The notes under the pieces were generated by a model. It searched no databases. It worked only from the letters and a program-made list of their open reading frames with translations, and was not told the DNA's origin. From a virus (lineage: Duplodnaviria > Caudoviricetes), in the IMG/VR virus record IMGVR_UViG_3300032030_002018: a stretch of DNA of 64,000 nucleotides. One strand, given 5' to 3'. The translations under genes and the position numbers were made by a program. Position 1 is the stretch's first letter, and each line of letters opens with the position of its first letter. Of this stretch, positions 3,983 through 21,000 are shown piece by piece.

Positions 3983-4366
3983 ATGAAAAAGAGAATTAGA
4001 CTAACAGAATCTGACTTGCATAGAATCGTGAATGAGTCAGTGAAAAGAGTGTTGAGAGAAGGTGGACATTTATATTGGACTGATGATGAAGGTAATGCAC
4101 ATACAAATTCAACAGATTTATATAGAGGTGTTGATGGTGCGATATTGGTAAGTCACGGAGAATGGTCAGACCCTGAAATATTGTATAAAAAACATTCTAT
4201 TAACTATTGGGACGCAGAAGAATTACTTTGGAGTCATTATAAAGACTTTTGTGAAGAGAATGGTATAGAACCAACAGAAGACAAATTTGATGAATATGTT
4301 GAAGAATATGAGGATGTTGAAGGTGCCCTTGATGACCTTGTTTGGGCATTAGATGGAAATCCATAA
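3983..4366 (+). CDS. Acidic hypothetical protein with LTESDL leader
   Basis: MKKRIRLTESDLHRIVNESVKRVLRE; GATATTTAT motif upstream at 3941. Confidence 0.7.
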   Translation: MKKRIRLTESDLHRIVNESVKRVLREGGHLYWTDDEGNAHTNSTDLYRGVDGAILVSHGEWSDPEILYKKHSINYWDAEELLWSHYKDFCEENGIEPTEDKFDEYVEEYEDVEGALDDLVWALDGNP

Positions 4367-6647: not shown

Positions 6648-6790
6648 ACAGTATGTTAAAACTTGAACAAACTTGTCTGTCCATTATTAACTTCTTGCTT
6701 CAACCTACCACTGCTTTTTAGTGCCTCATCACTGAGTCTGTCATCCACAGTTGGATAGTCCACAAGCATAAATTCTGTAGTACTGCTACC
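6648..6790 (-). ncRNA. omegaRNA/reRNA scaffold of the IS607 TnpB (copy A)
   Basis: Overlaps the tnpB 3' end; 5' hairpin GUAG-CAGUA-CUAC whose loop can pair with the 3'-terminal UACUG; homologous to 10230-10335 and 14506-14652. Confidence 0.75.
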
Positions 6791-6889
6791 TACTATTCTT
6801 AAACCTTCATCAAGTATGTTTAACGCTGCATTGTAGTCTCGCTCAATCACTTCACCACAAACAGGGCATAACCATTGTCTGTCACTCAA
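6656..6889 (-). pseudogene. tnpB: TnpB C-terminal remnant (Zn finger and RuvC-III)
   Basis: [21 protein letters not shown]; N-terminal part absent. Confidence 0.85.
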
Positions 6890-7018
6890 CTTCAGTTCTT
6901 TATTGCTCTTAACATAAATTTCCTATTTAATCATCTTCTGTACACCACATACCACCAGGACAACTTGTGTCATTAAACGGACAGTCGGTACATTTATCTT
7001 TATTTTCTTCTTTGTTGT

Positions 7019-7300
7019 TCATTTTCTTCTGTTAAATTCATCTATAATATTTTGTGACGGTTTGCCAACTGATGCCAAATACTTATAGTAAAGTTTTTTG
7101 CAAACAAATGGGTTTCCATTACAACCGTCTGTATCTTTATGCGACCAAGGAAGCATACATTCAGGATAGCCATTATCCCACCACTCACATTCGTTTCCAA
7201 ATTCAAAAAGCAATTTATTCGCCTTTCTATTAACAGATGTTCTTTGTTTATTTTTTCCCATCTTTCTTATTTTTTCTCCTTTCAGCACTTCTGCGTCCAT
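7019..7300 (-). CDS. Hypothetical Cys-containing protein inside the IS607 remnant
   Basis: 93-aa ORF between the tnpA and tnpB fragments; start uncertain. Confidence 0.5.
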   Translation of the reverse strand: MDAEVLKGEKIRKMGKNKQRTSVNRKANKLLFEFGNECEWWDNGYPECMLPWSHKDTDGCNGNPFVCKKLYYKYLASVGKPSQNIIDEFNRRK

Positions 7301-7625
7301 AATACTTCCCTGAGAATGAAGCCAACAGTGACATCATATCAGCAGCCAATTCCTCAGTATCAGATACGTCCATACCATTTATCACAATTACCTCACACCC
7401 ATAACTCTCAAACATCTTCTTGATGAACTTGAATTGGAATCGTGTAAGTCTATCCTTATGTTCTATTACCAACTTATTGACCTTTTGTTTTATTATCAAG
7501 TCAGTCAGTTTAACAAAGCCACTTCTATTGTCATTCAAACCACTACCAACATCTTTTATTATATGTGTGACAAGCATTCCTTTCTTGGCGCAATACTCAG
7601 ATAGTCTCTGTGATTGTCTATCCAA
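7248..7625 (-). pseudogene. tnpA: IS607-family serine recombinase TnpA, N-terminally disrupted
   Basis: DVGSGLN...IEHKDRLTRF...SFSGKYYGRRS motifs; catalytic YARVS region missing. Confidence 0.8.
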
Positions 7626-8622: not shown

Positions 8623-9510
8623 TTATTTTTCGTTTTTATCTTCCTGAATCAATTCAAATGGTTCTTCCTTTGTTTCTTCAACTCTTTTCTGCGCAATATC
8701 ACAGTATCGTCTGTCAATATCAATTCCAATATAATGTCTGCCAGTCCTTTTTGCAACAGCACAGGTTGTTCCAACTCCATTGAATATATCCATCACAGTA
8801 TCTCCACGAAAGCTGAATAGTCTAAGGATTCTATCTGCAATTGCTTCTGGAAACATTGCAGGATGTCCCCATTCTTTCATATTCCTTTCACCAGGAATAT
8901 TCCATATATTGCTCTTTACCCATTCAGAGAACTCTAATTTCTGCATATCGTCAGAGTTGTATGGCTGTTTAAAATGCTTTATATCACCTTTTGAATATAT
9001 CTCAATAAATTCAACCATAGATTTCATATATGGACTTGAAGAACTCAAATAACTACCCCAACAGGAATAATGTACATTGCGATTATTCTTATTCCATATA
9101 ATCTCATTTCGCCATATCATTTTATTCTCAATCATCAATGATGTTATCATATGATGTGTTGGAATAAAATCACTCATCAATGGCATTGTGTTTATTGCGA
9201 TTCTACCACCATATTTCGTTACACGTATTACCTCTTTTAATATTGCGAATAATTGATTGAAATATTCCTCATTGGTGGATGTATCGTCATATTCACCATA
9301 TTCCTTGCCAAAATTATATGGTGGGGAAGTAAAGGTCAAATCAATGCAATTGTCAGGCAATGTTTTTAAAAACTCCAAACTATCTGCACATATAATAGCA
9401 TCATTTATTGGAGAATCATTGTTGACCTTTGAAAAGGTATTGCCATTGGCATAATAATGCAATACCCTTTTGTTCTTTCTCTTATTTATTATTTTCTTTG
9501 TTTCAGACAT
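8623..9510 (-). CDS. DNA methyltransferase, N4C/N6A, beta class
   Basis: TSPPY, HPAMFP and DIFNGVG motifs; ATG overlaps the terminal CRISPR repeat. Confidence 0.9.
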   Translation of the reverse strand: MSETKKIINKRKNKRVLHYYANGNTFSKVNNDSPINDAIICADSLEFLKTLPDNCIDLTFTSPPYNFGKEYGEYDDTSTNEEYFNQLFAILKEVIRVTKYGGRIAINTMPLMSDFIPTHHMITSLMIENKMIWRNEIIWNKNNRNVHYSCWGSYLSSSSPYMKSMVEFIEIYSKGDIKHFKQPYNSDDMQKLEFSEWVKSNIWNIPGERNMKEWGHPAMFPEAIADRILRLFSFRGDTVMDIFNGVGTTCAVAKRTGRHYIGIDIDRRYCDIAQKRVEETKEEPFELIQEDKNEK

Positions 9511-10134
9511 CTTTATATACCTTTATTTTTAAGGTCTTCTACAACATATAATAATATTTTTTTATTTTACCTAAGTTGTATATACCTTTATTTTTAAGGT
9601 CTTCTACAACATACTCCTACCTTTCTTTTCTGATTCTATGTTGTATATACCTTTATTTTTAAGGTCTTCTACAACATTATTGCAAAAGTCTGCTACGATT
9701 CATAGTTGTATATACCTTTATTTTTAAGGTCTTCTACAACATTTTCTAACTATCGAACCATAAGGCATCTGTTGTATATACCTTTATTTTTAAGGTCTTC
9801 TACAACACATTCGCTAACAAATCCTTTGACTTGGCAGTTGTATATACCTTTATTTTTAAGGTCTTCTACAACAGGGGGGGGATGTGTTGATGGTATGTGG
9901 TGTTGTATATACCTTTATTTTTAAGGTCTTCTACAACTTGGTGCTATGCTTTCAAGGATAAGTTTAAGTTGTATATACCTTTATTTTTAAGGTCTTCTAC
10001 AACTCATTTGGAGACATCCTTTTAGAACCTTCGTTGTATATACCTTTATTTTTAAGGTCTTCTACAACCACCAAGACATTATATAAATGGTGCAAAGAGT
10101 TGTATATACCTTTATTTTTAAGGTCTTCTACAAC
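9510..10134 (-). CRISPR. CRISPR array: 10 repeats of 36 bp (GTTGTAGAAGACCTTAAAAATAAAGGTATATACAAC), 9 spacers of 29-30 bp
   Basis: Identical repeats start (+ coordinates) at 9575, 9640, 9705, 9771, 9837, 9902, 9968, 10033 and 10099; degenerate repeat at 9510-9545 taken as the trailer, implying minus-strand transcription. Confidence 0.97.
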
Positions 10135-10180
10135 CTATGACGCATAACTCTTTATTTGTCAGTTGTTTATGACCATTTTT

Positions 10181-10340
10181 GTGATGTAAAAGACCATTAT
10201 TTTAAGGTCGTGGCATTCATTTTGCCACAGTTTTTCTGTTTCATTCTACCACTACTTTTTAGCGAATTGTTTCCAATTGGGTCATCCATAGTTGGGTAGT
10301 CCGCAGACTTAACATCCCCGATACACCTGGGTAGGGTTTT
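10181..10340 (-). ncRNA. Putative tracrRNA derived from a TnpB omegaRNA (copy C)
   Basis: 10230-10335 aligns with omegaRNA copies A and B; hairpin GUGGCA...UGCCAC; anti-repeat GACCUU-AAAA-UAAUGGUCUUUUACAUC at 10183-10209. Confidence 0.75.
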
Positions 10341-10359: not shown

Positions 10360-11604
10360 TTATTTTGTTTCTGTCAGAATTCTATATCCTTCGTTCCTGA
10401 TATTTATCGCTGCATTTATATCCCTATCGTGTTCTATTCCGCATTGTGGGCATTTCCACATTCTTATTTTTAAGTTCTTTAATTCCTTGTTTTGATATCC
10501 ACAATTTGAGCATATCTGAGAACTTGGATAAAATCTGTCTATAACAGATAAGTTCTTTCCGTACCAATCACACTTATATGTAAGTTGTCGTCTCATTTCT
10601 CCCATATTGGCGTTTGTTATTGATTTTGCTATATGGTGATTTTTGACCATTCCCTTGACATTCAAATCCTCAATGCAAATAGTGTTGATGTTATCATTAT
10701 TCTTCGCCACATATGAAGTGATTTGGTGTGTATTGTAATTTCTTTTACCTGCTATTCTATTTTGTAATTTTGCAATCTTGTCTTTAAGTTTAATGTAATT
10801 TTTAGAAGGAACTTTAACCTCAACATCCTTGTTATACTTGTGTGAAAACACTGTCTCACCGGTTTTTATCCATTTTTTCTTGGATAGTTTTCTTTCAAGT
10901 TTTTTAAGTCTTTTTTCAAGTTTGGAATCCTTTTCATTCGTCGGAAATTTTGTGCCGTCAGACGTAATGGCATTTGAGTCTGTCTTAACACCCATATCAA
11001 TTCCAATAGATTTTTCTATTGATGGAGTTTCCTTTTCTTTTGCCTTAAAATCGTCATCGCATAGAATTGATATTTCATAGTAATCAAATGATTTCTTTGA
11101 AATAGTAAATTGGGTGATTCTACCCTGTATTTTTTTATGCAGTATAATTTTCACCCAATGAGGATGTCTTGGATTTTGTGGGTTAACAATTCTTACAAGA
11201 GATTTTTTGAAATTGAAAATCTTTTTGTTATCAGTTTCTTGTATTTGTATTGCAAATGAATTTCCGTATTTTTTACTTTTAAACCTAGGTTCATCCGCAA
11301 GTTTTTTAAACCATCTATCAAAAGCAGAATCAAGGTTTGACGCTGTATATATATAAGATATAGCTGGTGCTACCTTTAAAAATTCTGTATCTTGATTTCT
11401 TTTCAATACAGGAAGGTCTCTTGACACATCATATTGTGCGCTTAAGTGTTTTTTAGCTGTATCATTGTCTTTGTTTTCTTGATAATGTTTTTTTATTTTC
11501 TCTAAACAGTAATTCCACCACCAAACATTTGACTTAAAACATTTGTCAAAATATTCTTTTTGTTCATCGTTAGGATATATCCTGTATTTATATGCTCTTT
11601 TCAT
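10360..11604 (-). CDS. CRISPR-associated TnpB/Cas12f-like RNA-guided nuclease (414 aa)
   Basis: AYKYRIYP N-terminus; RuvC-I GIDMG, RuvC-II IEDL, Zn finger CSNC/CPQC, RuvC-III DRDINAA; adjacent array; no adjacent transposase. Confidence 0.9.
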   Translation of the reverse strand: MKRAYKYRIYPNDEQKEYFDKCFKSNVWWWNYCLEKIKKHYQENKDNDTAKKHLSAQYDVSRDLPVLKRNQDTEFLKVAPAISYIYTASNLDSAFDRWFKKLADEPRFKSKKYGNSFAIQIQETDNKKIFNFKKSLVRIVNPQNPRHPHWVKIILHKKIQGRITQFTISKKSFDYYEISILCDDDFKAKEKETPSIEKSIGIDMGVKTDSNAITSDGTKFPTNEKDSKLEKRLKKLERKLSKKKWIKTGETVFSHKYNKDVEVKVPSKNYIKLKDKIAKLQNRIAGKRNYNTHQITSYVAKNNDNINTICIEDLNVKGMVKNHHIAKSITNANMGEMRRQLTYKCDWYGKNLSVIDRFYPSSQICSNCGYQNKELKNLKIRMWKCPQCGIEHDRDINAAINIRNEGYRILTETK

Positions 11605-14505: not shown

Positions 14506-14652
14506 ACTGTACGCTAAATTCTGAACAAACTTGTCTGTTCATTATTAACTTCTTGTTTCATCCTACCACTACTTTTTAGTACCTCATAGCTGAGTGTGTC
14601 ATCCATAGGAGGGCAGTCCGCAAGCGTAAATTCGGGTGTACAGCACCCTACG
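14506..14652 (-). ncRNA. Orphan TnpB omegaRNA scaffold (copy B)
   Basis: Aligns along its length with 6648-6790; hairpin GGGUG-CUGUA-CACCC whose loop pairs with the 3' UACAG; no tnpB ORF. Confidence 0.75.
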
Positions 14653-14687
14653 TTTAATAGATAAATACTCATTTTTTATTTACAATG

Positions 14688-14719
14688 CAAATGTACACTA
14701 TTTATTTGTAAAAAACAAA
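14688..14719 (-). promoter_or_regulatory. Bacteroidota-type promoter
   Basis: TTTG-N20-TACATTTG upstream of the orphan omegaRNA and tRNA run. Confidence 0.8.
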
Positions 14720-14736
14720 TTTTCAAACTTGAAATA

Positions 14737-16852: not shown

Positions 16853-18052
16853 CTACCCACAAACTAAAGATTTGTGGGCTTCTGACTTCATTGCTGACTG
16901 CCATTGAAATGGTCTTACATCTGCTCCATCAGTGTAATCGACAGTTCCTGCCGATATATTTCTTAATCCTTCTGCAAGGATATTCATTGCTGCATTAACA
17001 TCTCTGTCAAGAACTTCTCCACAATTTGGACAAGTCCATTCCCTATCTTTCAACGATAAGTCTTCTTTAACCCAACTACAACAATGGCAAGTCTTTGAAG
17101 ATGGGTAGTATCTACCTATCTTCACTACTTTCTTATTGTTCATAACTGCCTTGTAAGTAAGCATTGAAAGGAATGCTCCCCAACTTGCATCAGATATACT
17201 CTGAGCAAGTCTATGGTTTCTTTGCATACCCTTTACATTCAAGTCCTCACAACAAATTACATCATAATTCCTGATTAAGTCGGTGCTAATCTTATGTAAT
17301 TTGTCAAACCTACAGTTATGAATTTTCTCTTGTATTCTCGCAACCTTAATTCTTTGTCTGTTCCAAGAATTACTACCTTTCTGCTTTCTTGACAAATGTT
17401 TCTGCGATTTTGCAAGCTCTTTTGAATAACGCTTGATGAATTTGTTACTTGAATATCTCTTACCATCACTTGTGACTACCAAGTCTTTTAACCCCAAGTC
17501 TATACCAACCTTTGCATTGGTTTTCTGCAACGGTTCATATATAACTTGAGTAAGTATGGAAACATAATATTTTCCGCTCGGTGTAACAGAGATTGTCATA
17601 TTTCTGACATCGCCACCTTTGAATGGTCTATACTCCACTATCTTAATCCCATCTTTGAACTTTGGAATATATATCCTACCATTCTCAACAGAACAATGCT
17701 GTGGTATACGAAAACTTCCGCCATTTTTCTTTGCCTTGAATCTTGGAAACCTTGCATTACCACTAAAAAAATTAGTATATGCCGTTTCAAGATTTCTCAG
17801 TGCGAATTGAAGTGTCTGTGAATTGATTTCCTTTAACCACAAGTATTCTTCTTGTCTTTTTAGTTTGGTAAGTGCGCTTGCTTGTACATAGTAATTGTCA
17901 CTTTTACCATTATCAGTGTATTGCTGTTTTCTTTCAGCAAGAAAATGATTATAGACAAAACGTACAGACCCAAAATACCTTGCAAGTATTTGCTCTTGCT
18001 CCTTATTTGGGCACATTCTGTACTTATATGTCTTTAAAATCACTTTCATCAT
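16853..18052 (-). CDS. tnpB: IS605-family TnpB RNA-guided endonuclease
   Basis: GIDLG, CEDL, CHCC/CPNC, DRDVNAA. Confidence 0.95.
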   Translation of the reverse strand: MMKVILKTYKYRMCPNKEQEQILARYFGSVRFVYNHFLAERKQQYTDNGKSDNYYVQASALTKLKRQEEYLWLKEINSQTLQFALRNLETAYTNFFSGNARFPRFKAKKNGGSFRIPQHCSVENGRIYIPKFKDGIKIVEYRPFKGGDVRNMTISVTPSGKYYVSILTQVIYEPLQKTNAKVGIDLGLKDLVVTSDGKRYSSNKFIKRYSKELAKSQKHLSRKQKGSNSWNRQRIKVARIQEKIHNCRFDKLHKISTDLIRNYDVICCEDLNVKGMQRNHRLAQSISDASWGAFLSMLTYKAVMNNKKVVKIGRYYPSSKTCHCCSWVKEDLSLKDREWTCPNCGEVLDRDVNAAMNILAEGLRNISAGTVDYTDGADVRPFQWQSAMKSEAHKSLVCG

Positions 18053-18143
18053 TTAAAATATAGTTAAAAACTATCTCTTTTCAATAATAAATATTAGATA
18101 ATTTACAAAAAGTTCCTATTTTTTGTAAAAAATATTTTTTATT

Positions 18144-18239
18144 ATGAGTTATTTTTCTAAAAATTGGTCTAACGGATATTTTGTATGCTCCATTAGTGAA
18201 GCAAATCCTGATACTATTAGAAAGTACATTGAGAATTAA
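18144..18239 (+). pseudogene. tnpA: IS200-type tnpA remnant
   Basis: The 5' (atgagttatttttcta) and 3' ends of the 19055-19453 gene are fused. Confidence 0.85.
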
Positions 18240-18572
18240 GGTTTATGCAATTCATCCCATTAACTAAAGATTAATGGGTTTTCTTGCATTATTTATATAA
18301 AAAATAAAAGCTGCTGAAACTTTTTTGGAGGTATCAACAGCTTGGGAAATATATAGTTAAGTAAGTGCGCCAATTTTACATCATATATTTTTCAAACTGT
18401 TTTAACCTTTTATTATTGGTATACGCCGGTGTATCACATTCTTGAATTGAATGTGAAAGACAAATGGATGGATATTTCTGACTAAAATTTTTCATTATAT
18501 GTTTAAGGTGATAATTTCTTTTTATAAATATATATAAATTTTTGAAAAAAACAAAATTTTTGAAAATATTTT

Positions 18573-19012
18573 TTAAAAAGTTTCCATAAAATTCACCAAA
18601 TCAATATAATTTTGTTCAGCGACAAAACTAACAATAGTTGATATTGCCTTTTTTATTCTTTCTGCATTTTCAGTATAACATTCCTCGTATGGCTTATATG
18701 GTGTCAGTCTATCGTGTTGTTTTGGTCTATTGGAATAATATTCGGAAACAGTTTTAAAATGATTTTTAATAGCACTATAATCTTGATTTAACACTTCTAC
18801 AACAGCTTCGTTTAAACAATTTAGTCTAAACTCTACCTTGTTTTTACTAAGTGGGTCTATATCTATATCCACAAACCTCTTACAAAGGGCAGGTACTCTC
18901 TCTCTCCAATGATTAACGACTTGACTGTCTGGATAAAGACACAAACATACTAAATTGTCTACAATAGCATCTAAAACCTCACCGAATTTATCAGTCATTT
19001 TATATTTTCTAT
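18573..19012 (-). pseudogene. 3' part of a phage gene interrupted by IS605 copy 2
   Basis: Joins in frame with 21006-21089 when the IS is removed (..FGMKP-N-RKYKMTD..). Confidence 0.65.
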
Positions 19013-19054
19013 GCAAGAAAACCCATTAATCTTTAGTTAATGGGATGAATTGCA

Positions 19055-19453
19055 TCAGCCTTGATTCTCAATATACTTTCTAATAGTATCAGGATTCGCT
19101 TCACCAATAGAACATACAAAATATCCATCAGACCAAAAAGTATGTTCCTTCCAAAAATGTTTTCTTAGTATTGGTTGGAACTCTTTCCAAAGTCTGTTTG
19201 TACTTACTTGTTTCAATACTCTGACAATTGAAGTAACTGTAATATTTGGCGGATAACTAATAAGAAGATGTATATGGTCTTTGTCCGTTTCCATTATCTC
19301 AATATCAAAGTCACATCTACTTTCTACTTCCTTAAATACTAAAAGAACACATTCTCTAATTTCAGAAACAAGTAGTTGTTTCCTGTACTTACAGACAAAT
19401 ATTAAGTGACATTTCAAGTAAAACTTGTGTCTATTATTAGAAAAATAACTCAT
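19055..19453 (-). CDS. tnpA: IS200-type Y1 HUH transposase
   Basis: HLIFVCKYR, DHIHLL (HUH), FWSDGYF, YIENQ. Confidence 0.95.
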   Translation of the reverse strand: MSYFSNNRHKFYLKCHLIFVCKYRKQLLVSEIRECVLLVFKEVESRCDFDIEIMETDKDHIHLLISYPPNITVTSIVRVLKQVSTNRLWKEFQPILRKHFWKEHTFWSDGYFVCSIGEANPDTIRKYIENQG

Positions 19454-19560
19454 ATCAAAATATTTTTTTTACAAAAATAGTAACTTTTTGTAAATTATTT
19501 GATATTTATTATTGAAAAGAGATAGTTTTTAACTATATTTTAAACGTAAACGTAAAGAAT

Positions 19561-19785
19561 ATGGAAGTTATTAAAGGAATAAGTCTAAACGATGTACAAA
19601 AAGCAAAAGATACTTTGATAGAAGATGCAGAGATAATGAAGGCACTAAGAGATAGACTTAAAGAACAAGATGTTCCACTGCAAGAACAGAATGACATAAG
19701 GAAAAAGGTGATAGATATTCTTTCAAAGGATTTGTTGATAACAATGAATCTGTCAAGTTGCGCTGATATTATAAATGTTTGGTAA
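19561..19785 (+). CDS. Passenger hypothetical protein inside IS605
   Basis: 74-aa ORF on a ~260-bp insert absent from the other copy. Confidence 0.6.
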   Translation: MEVIKGISLNDVQKAKDTLIEDAEIMKALRDRLKEQDVPLQEQNDIRKKVIDILSKDLLITMNLSSCADIINVW

Positions 19786-19803
19786 ATAAGTAAAGATAAT
19801 TAT

Positions 19804-21000
19804 ATGAAAGTGATTTTAAAGACATATAAGTACAGAATGTACCCAAATAAGGAGCAAGAGCAAATGCTTGCAAAGTATTTTGGGTCCGTACGTTTTGTCT
19901 ATAATCATTTTCTTGCCGAAAGAAAACAACAATACACTGAGAATGGAAAAAGTGATAACTATTATGCACAAGCAAGCACACTTACCAAACTAAAAAAACA
20001 AGAAGAATACTTGTGGCTAAAGGAAATCAATTCGCAAACACTTCAATTCGCACTTAGAAATCTTGAAACTGCATATACTAATTTCTTTAGGGGTAATGCA
20101 AGATTTCCAAGATTCAAGGCAAAGAAAAATGGTGGGAGTTTCCATATACCACAACATTGTTCTGTGGAGAATAGTAGAATTTACATACCAAAGTTCAAAG
20201 ATGGAATTAAAATAGTAGAACACAGACCATTCAAAGGCGGAGATGTCAGAAATATGACAATCTCTGTCACACCAAGCGGAAAATATTATGTTTCCATACT
20301 TACACAAGTTACATACGAGCCTTTACAGAAAACCAATGCAAAGGTTGGTATAGACTTGGGGTTGAAAGACTTGGTAATCACAAGTGATGGTAAAAAGTAT
20401 TCAAGCAATAAGTTCATTAAGCGTTATTCAAAAGAACTTGCAAAAGCACAGAAACACTTGTCAAGAAAGCAGAAAGGTAGCAATTCTTGGAACAGACAAA
20501 GAATTAAGGTTGCAAGAATACAAGAGAAAATTCACAATTGTAGATTTGATAAGTTACATAAAATTAGTACTGACTTAATCAGGAACTATGATGTAATTTG
20601 TTGTGAGGACTTGAATGTTAAAGGTATGCAAAGAAACCATAGACTTGCTCAGTCAATATTAGATGCAAGTTGGGGAGCATTCCTTTCAATGCTTACTTAC
20701 AAGGCAGTTATGAATGATAAACAAGTAGTGAAGATAGGTAGATACTACCCATCTTCAAAAACTTGTCATCATTGTGGTTGGGTTAAAGAAGACTTATCGT
20801 TGAAAGATAGGGAATGGACTTGTCCAAATTGTGGAGAAGTTCTTGACAGAGATGTTAATGCAGCAATGAATATCCTTGCAGAAGGATTAAGAAATATATC
20901 GGCAGGAACTGTCGATTACACTGATGGAGCAGATGTAAGACCCTTTCAAGGGCAATCAGCAAAGAAGTCAGAAGCCCACAAATCTTTAGTTTGTGGGTAG
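19804..21000 (+). CDS. tnpB: IS605-family TnpB
   Basis: Intact RuvC D/E/D and Zn finger; near-identical to 16853-18052. Confidence 0.95.
   Translation: MKVILKTYKYRMYPNKEQEQMLAKYFGSVRFVYNHFLAERKQQYTENGKSDNYYAQASTLTKLKKQEEYLWLKEINSQTLQFALRNLETAYTNFFRGNARFPRFKAKKNGGSFHIPQHCSVENSRIYIPKFKDGIKIVEHRPFKGGDVRNMTISVTPSGKYYVSILTQVTYEPLQKTNAKVGIDLGLKDLVITSDGKKYSSNKFIKRYSKELAKAQKHLSRKQKGSNSWNRQRIKVARIQEKIHNCRFDKLHKISTDLIRNYDVICCEDLNVKGMQRNHRLAQSILDASWGAFLSMLTYKAVMNDKQVVKIGRYYPSSKTCHHCGWVKEDLSLKDREWTCPNCGEVLDRDVNAAMNILAEGLRNISAGTVDYTDGADVRPFQGQSAKKSEAHKSLVCG

Follow-up and report, generated by a model that had tools for sequence, protein, structure and literature searches.

A phage-encoded TranC-type CRISPR locus whose predicted tracrRNA keeps a transposon omegaRNA core and very probably takes its pseudoknot strand from the CRISPR repeat

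Analysis of a 64,000-nucleotide stretch of viral DNA (the window; IMG/VR record IMGVR_UViG_3300032030_002018) revealed a minus-strand locus that holds a gene for a 414-aa TnpB-like protein, a tracr interval, a 10-repeat CRISPR array and a DNA methyltransferase gene, with the tracr interval lying between the intact TnpB-like gene and the array (Table 1). Judged from sequence comparisons, this interval is very likely to be the tracrRNA of a compact CRISPR system of the TranC type encoded by Bacteroidota jumbo phages, and the locus is a well-supported new example of the halfway stage between transposons and CRISPR that has recently been described. The carrier is a jumbo phage, a giant virus of gut bacteria, in which the effector is found on a contig of 335 kb, and its host is probably a member of the Bacteroidota. 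The window itself is AT-rich (34% GC) with 15-16 tRNA genes and recurring TAnnTTTG promoter-like boxes, which we take to be of the Bacteroidota type. No transposase adjoins the effector gene at this locus (hereafter locus C), and inspection identified no cas1-, cas2- or cas4-like ORF. Elsewhere in the window (16853-21000), a Y1 transposase gene (19055-19453) is flanked by two intact, near-identical TnpB genes of the IS605 type that point in opposite directions; the RNAs of these TnpB genes do not match the RNA model described below.

Table 1. Positions of the features discussed in the text (window coordinates)
Feature	Position	Strand	Remarks
Copy A, contiguous omegaRNA	6648..6791	-	Right end of a dead IS607; tnpB is a 3' stub (6656-6889)
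Serine recombinase of relic A	7248..7625	-	N-terminally truncated; no HTH or YxRVS motif
CRISPR array	9510..10134	-	9 identical 36-nt repeats, 1 degenerate terminal repeat, 9 spacers of ~29-30 nt
Leader motif, resembling an IHF site	10145..10157	-	Ends 10 nt before first repeat; same phase in homologues and Cas13b leaders
Predicted tracrRNA	10183..10340	-	~157 nt, ends inferred
Anti-repeat part 2	10183..10195	-	Predicted to pair with 5' half of repeat
Anti-repeat part 1 (ACCUU)	10204..10208	-	Predicted to pair with repeat AAGGU near pseudoknot strand
Extra hairpin	10210..10228	-	In CRISPR-linked loci (clear in 15/16), absent from A and B
OmegaRNA core	10231..10308	-	Common to A and B; nested stems with compensatory changes
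5' hairpin	10317..10331	-	Loop 10321-10327, predicted pseudoknot arm
TnpB-like effector, TranC-type	10360..11604	-	414 aa; RuvC D203/E312/D395 and Zn finger intact
Copy B, orphan contiguous omegaRNA	14506..14649	-	Behind promoter-like motif; ends 2 nt before tRNA-Gly

The preliminary description of this DNA had proposed that the interval is related to two contiguous omegaRNAs of the same window, copies A and B, and the sequence blocks said to be shared by A, B and C were all found in place. To evaluate this kinship independently we used a covariance model built from 12 contiguous omegaRNAs of other phages, with zero window sequence included. The model matches exactly three places in the window, namely A (131 bits), B (123 bits) and C (72.6 bits; 10193-10332, E ~3e-12), in agreement with the proposed homology. 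The same model scored 47-86 bits against 13 split homologues, with a weak match to locus L217 and none to L162. On this evidence the minus strand of 10230-10335 is a true omegaRNA homologue, and an omegaRNA-derived, tracrRNA-like scaffold is supported at the sequence level. No Rfam family, RAGATH-18 included, was matched by A, B or C even at an E-value of 10. The pairing between the 5' loop and the scaffold end reported earlier for A (CAGUA/UACUG) and B (CUGUA/UACAG) holds as well: in the 12 outside elements this 5-bp cis pseudoknot is paired in 100% of cells with 1 column covarying, and two further contiguous elements carry the compensatory types CAGCA/UGCUG and CUGUG/CACAG. The same RNA core is also present in the IS605-type elements L021 and L050, whose omegaRNAs resemble the 5' stem of C at least as well as those of A or B do.

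Copies A and B are therefore best described as same-family relics that, by sequence, show the ancestral type and are not a proven ancestor. The tnpA gene and right end of an IS607 element, absent at C, are present as a relic at copy A, where the recombinase stub, without HTH and catalytic motif, is 69% identical to the TnpA of the intact IS607 in L230. The earlier proposal that ancestral and derived states coexist in one genome holds only loosely: A is a dead relic, and B has no nuclease gene. An origin of A and B by re-fusion was rejected, as A has a TnpB tail and an IS607 tnpA and both copies are without the extra hairpin. We note that orphan B (14506-14720) lies behind a tRNA-cluster promoter motif, such that an RNase P cut at the tRNA-Gly would leave it a 2-nt guide, and that in L230, L232 and L234 the ends of related omegaRNAs adjoin or break into tRNA sequence, suggesting that the A/B family favours tRNA clusters.

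We then compared the DNA of 16 distinct related loci, reading the 5' loop at a fixed offset. These loci have a common order of omega-like core, extra hairpin, anti-repeat, leader and 36-nt repeats with ~30-nt spacers, and their repeats differ widely while all ending in CAAC. At the window locus, the loop GGUGUAU pairs at six of seven positions with AUACAAC, a sequence described earlier as the end of every repeat, which holds for nine of the ten repeats and fails at the degenerate terminal one. Four inner loop/repeat pairs are conserved in all of the loci, and at three positions loop and repeat have both changed, yielding the loop/repeat-end types UGUAU/AUACA, UGCAU/AUGCA, UGUAC/GUACA and UGUGC/GUACA, together with UGUAG/UUACA, UGUAA/UUACA and UGUCA/UGGCA. 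The clearest covarying case is the close pair of L019 (UGUAU/AUACA) and L018 (UGCAU/AUGCA), in which the change in the L018 repeat retains the pair with the loop and weakens the repeat's own palindrome. Over 9 distinct combinations, cognate loops and repeats scored 41.5 compared with 35.0 when permuted (p 0.0003-0.0005, values that are optimistic because the loci are related, as is the anti-repeat permutation below). Mismatches affect the fifth pair in 4 of 15 loci, and the seventh pair previously drawn, of G with the terminal C, is present in only 7 of 16. The remaining exception in the window, a G opposite A at repeat position -2, at first sight looks like a flaw; this G is, however, invariant in 16/16 loci and the opposition matches the non-canonical -106G/-2A pair of the ISDra2 pseudoknot (PMC10097598).

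The anti-repeats behave in a similar manner. In the window, the ACCUU:AAGGU helix and an 11-bp duplex with one G-U give -20.5 kcal/mol, and the window's own repeat is the best of 15 repeats tried against the window tail. Cognate anti-repeat duplexes sum to -243.5, as against -179 +/- 11 when permuted (0 of 20000 permutations), and in the unconstrained duplex test no more than 6 of 15 rows have the cognate repeat at the top. The short arm comes immediately after the extra hairpin and would meet the repeat next to the pseudoknot strand, on its 5' side; in most loci another hairpin precedes the long arm, and the distance from core to array is 95-99 nt in 14 of the 16. Co-folding the window RNAs with the pseudoknot bases held open yields -47.7 kcal/mol, compared with -35.3 and -9.4 alone, and reproduces the two-duplex layout drawn in the preliminary description. 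The single-guide design suggested there is likewise supported. In L177 (6595-6905) the tracr and a two-repeat mini-array lie 3.2 kb from the nuclease gene, which argues that they form a separable unit. Since the loop changes with the repeat 3' end and the anti-repeat prefers its own repeat, the CRISPR repeat very probably supplies the pseudoknot strand, as had been suggested, with the loop covarying in trans with the repeat end across the 16 loci.

The trans pseudoknot alone is weak (-3.3 kcal/mol), and the window tail contains a possible cis partner, UACAUC, whose 6-bp helix would be stronger (-6.2 kcal/mol). This helix, the VI-B-like repeat and leader discussed below and an IS-like end (ATACGGT) after the last hairpin of L187 speak for a reading in which the interval still acts in cis as a whole omegaRNA, with the leader as its guide and the array serving, for example, a Cas13b of the host, or, in a weaker form, in which both modes are used. 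A general cis pseudoknot was rejected, because 5 of the 16 loci have no cis partner and its position varies in the others. In addition, loops track repeat ends, anti-repeats track their own repeats and many homologous repeats are far from those of Cas13b (17-22 of 36 positions identical), which makes cis action highly improbable. UACAUC, which is not conserved, would be buried upon repeat binding.

The RuvC triad D203/E312/D395 is invariant in 64 sequences and the effector scores 268 bits with NF040570. The fold of the modelled effector is closest to TnpB (8h1j, 8iaz), with TnpB folds ranking above those of Cas12f. The effector has neither the expanded REC/WED domains nor the profile score of Cas12f (V-F): it reaches 33 bits with NF049972 (cut-off 450). 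With NF038280, the profile applied for an IS607 element, it reaches 147 bits (cut-off 350). Its ORF stops at 10360, ahead of the tracr RNA, and the model is without a disordered C-terminal tail, unlike Cas12n (V-U4), although the best PADLOC profile is Cas12u4. Approximately 85 protein clusters share 43-61% identity with the effector.

The effector's relatives also bear on where the system came from. In a quick protein tree, all 11 CRISPR-linked proteins fall on one side of a branch (SH-aLRT 97) and the A-family proteins form a separate group (SH-aLRT 100), with a backbone that lacks resolution. An IS607 of the A/B family could have split its own omegaRNA, in which case the repeat would be a duplicate of the element's 3' end and A and B would display the direct ancestral state. 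A clade joining CRISPR-linked and A-family proteins was not rejected (AU p 0.71), the distance from pseudoknot core to guide is equal in the two (UACNGU and UACAAC), and L187 offers a possible old right end (p 0.006, uncorrected, in 1 of 16 loci). The A-family TnpBs, however, share only 29-36% identity with the effector, a distance at which other TnpBs also stand, and lie in their own clade. Furthermore, the 5' stem and G-A geometry of C are as close to the IS605-type L021 and L050, and VI-B arrays agree with the present one in repeat length, termini, spacer length and leader phase. We regard such a split as unlikely, while recognising that it concerns origin only and is compatible with the mechanism favoured here. 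The L187 sequence (4171-4177) is a perfect IS607-family right end located after the last tracr hairpin and is possibly a remnant of an old 3' end; ATAC starts also occur in L001, L162 and L179.

The array itself points to a different source for the crRNA half. Its fixed 3' end, its degenerate distal repeat and a leader motif on the tracr side indicate that it is read on the minus strand, in line with the preliminary description, and not on the plus strand. At the 10-nt phase the motif has a mean of 1.7 mismatches, compared with 4.3-6.7 at other offsets, and stands out clearly even given that the offset was chosen after the data had been seen. We label it IHF-like as our own assumption; a literature search turned up nothing that confirms the IHF consensus or a use of it in leaders of this kind. 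Scanning genomes for similar repeats identified 11 Bacteroidota loci, several beside Cas13b, and in 5 of 7 Cas13b leaders the motif recurs with the 10-nt phase unchanged. Most of the Cas13b repeats found in this way are identical to the window repeat at 23-26 of 36 positions and one at 19, figures inflated by a search pattern built from the window repeat. VI-B arrays likewise have 36-nt repeats of the form GTTGT...ACAAC, ~30-nt spacers, no cas1/cas2 and this leader motif 10 nt before the first repeat, and can acquire 30-bp spacers from II-C Cas1-Cas2 in trans (PMC8092290). They differ from the present system, which has a RuvC DNA nuclease as effector and a repeat that is predicted to pair with a tracr rather than to form a lone hairpin. 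The match in repeat, spacer length and phased leader motif suggests that the crRNA half was probably captured from a type VI-B-like leader and repeat and not cut from the omegaRNA, although convergence on the same host integrase could also produce the likeness. The omegaRNA splitting of the preliminary description was therefore probably not a simple cut, given the extra hairpin of the tracr and the captured look of repeat and leader.

GTTG...CAAC termini are typical of Bacteroidota arrays (PMC8092290). It could accordingly be argued that a decayed solo TnpB sits beside an orphan array by chance, the ACAAC ends reflecting Cas1-Cas2 constraints only, and the failure to find a target would fit such a view: no convincing protospacer was detected in cultured phages, plasmids, 46 viral records or 401 genomes of a Prevotella's family, nor in two exact IMG/VR scans or any of the fetched loci, and these searches yielded no PAM. 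Chance is nevertheless largely refuted, and extremely improbable, as 16 loci, with protein identities as low as ~35%, have the same layout, their loops and anti-repeats covary and the catalytic triad is invariant.

Several observations on the repeats and spacers are recorded here in their own right. The first 11 bases of spacer 4 match 6944-6962, inside relic A, where ~0.3 such matches are expected by chance. The degenerate terminal repeat (9510-9545) extends into the start codon of the gene for the DNA methyltransferase (8623-9510). In L182 (4703-4800) the array end abuts a tRNA-like sequence and one spacer is duplicated, and the TnpB-bearing viral loci L010 (890-1140) and L012 (3698-4640) contain unrelated repeat arrays with a 72-74-nt period. 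In L285-L288, up to 30 of the 36 bases of the window repeat recur within a long bacterial ORF that by eye resembles glutamate synthase, a likeness probably due to chance in AT-rich DNA.

Splitting of an omegaRNA was proposed from the TnpB structure (PMC10097598). TranC systems are presented as transposon-CRISPR intermediates (Jin et al., Cell 2025, PMID 41027434, as relayed in PMC13565253, PMC13639567 and bioRxiv 10.64898/2026.03.27.714800), and their arrangement, in which the repeat completes an omegaRNA-derived tracr, is given after Jin 2025 in PMC13565253. The split-omegaRNA arrangement at locus C is the published TranC arrangement and not a new principle. Every testable TranC feature was found: a compact TnpB-like effector with intact RuvC, array linkage in 16 loci with no transposase or cas1/cas2 among called neighbours, a tracr homologous to transposon reRNA/omegaRNA and, by covariation only, a crRNA repeat that rebuilds pseudoknot and stem with the tracr. 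The features of Cas12f, Cas12n and intact IS607 were absent. LaTranC (PDB 9jfo/9jfq; 478-575 aa) matches the effector in sequence only at residues 263-403, and differs in that the present clade is phage-borne and its array VI-B-like. A TranC that is active, phage-borne and from a clade with a mean length of 414 aa has been described in bioRxiv 10.64898/2026.03.27.714800, according to which only 2 TranC clades gave a consistent tracr structure. Compared by description, CauTranC9 resembles our system in being phage-encoded, in a clade average of 414 aa, in having no expanded REC/WED domains and in its short array, and has a reported repeat of 38 bp versus 36 here.

Among transposon systems, ISDra2 TnpB (PDB 8h1j, PMC10097598) has an omegaRNA with the same pseudoknot between 5' loop and scaffold end and the same G opposite A(-2), and ISFba1 IS607 TnpB with its RAGATH-18 reRNA (PDB 8iaz, PMC11061315; the Rfam RAGATH-18 model is without a match here), the best fold match together with 8h1j, forms a pseudoknot of 5' loop and last scaffold bases; both differ in having a single RNA, one fixed guide and a transposase. 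Cas12f (V-F) and Cas12n (V-U4) share the pseudoknot R:AR1 plus a long repeat:anti-repeat duplex R:AR2, whereas our effector is TnpB-sized and its tracr is still recognisable as an omegaRNA by sequence. The tracr also follows the stop codon instead of lying inside the coding tail, the feature that marks Cas12n. A divergent 465-aa member, L217 (1822-2200), has a tracr that overlaps the coding tail, as in Cas12n, and a repeat without the GTTG start.

Taken together, the sequence comparisons show a tracr that retains a transposon omegaRNA core and that, in most relatives, has no 3' pseudoknot strand it could rely on. The 3' tail of the tracr pairs with the CRISPR repeat, and the 5' loop pairs with positions -7 to -3 of that repeat, so that the guide-pseudoknot-stem core is re-formed in trans immediately ahead of the spacer. 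We further propose that effector gene, tracr and array would be transcribed from the minus strand, that host RNase III would probably trim the tracr:repeat duplex and that the effector would carry out 5' trimming. This protein, of TnpB size, would then load the dual RNA and cut spacer-matching DNA next to a 5' motif, new spacers would come from host Cas1-Cas2, and the likely targets would be competing phages or mobile elements. The system likely arose when a solo TnpB and its omegaRNA landed upstream of a VI-B-like leader and repeat that had been captured, the terminal ACAAC of the repeat being a fit for the loop, an event that would have happened once, in the ancestor of the clade. By what is said of the work of Jin and colleagues, TranC can also use contiguous transposon reRNA. 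It is conceivable, and we put it forward tentatively, that the phages carry an unpublished, phage-specific TranC lineage whose crRNA half derives from a captured VI-B leader and repeat that displaced the omegaRNA 3' strand, and whose nuclease may load contiguous omegaRNAs such as orphan B. A remnant of the displaced strand may survive as the anti-repeat.

The additions beyond TranC as published would be an array of VI-B-like origin and an effector that uses contiguous omegaRNAs of the same genome, for which A and B are natural test substrates. The family also supplies dozens of candidate nucleases of ~400 aa with a predictable single guide. Finally, the 16 loci form a natural series in which the step from omegaRNA to tracrRNA can be read base by base, with compensatory pairs ready, and which bears on the question of whether the first TranC repeat came from a duplicated transposon end or from a captured host array.
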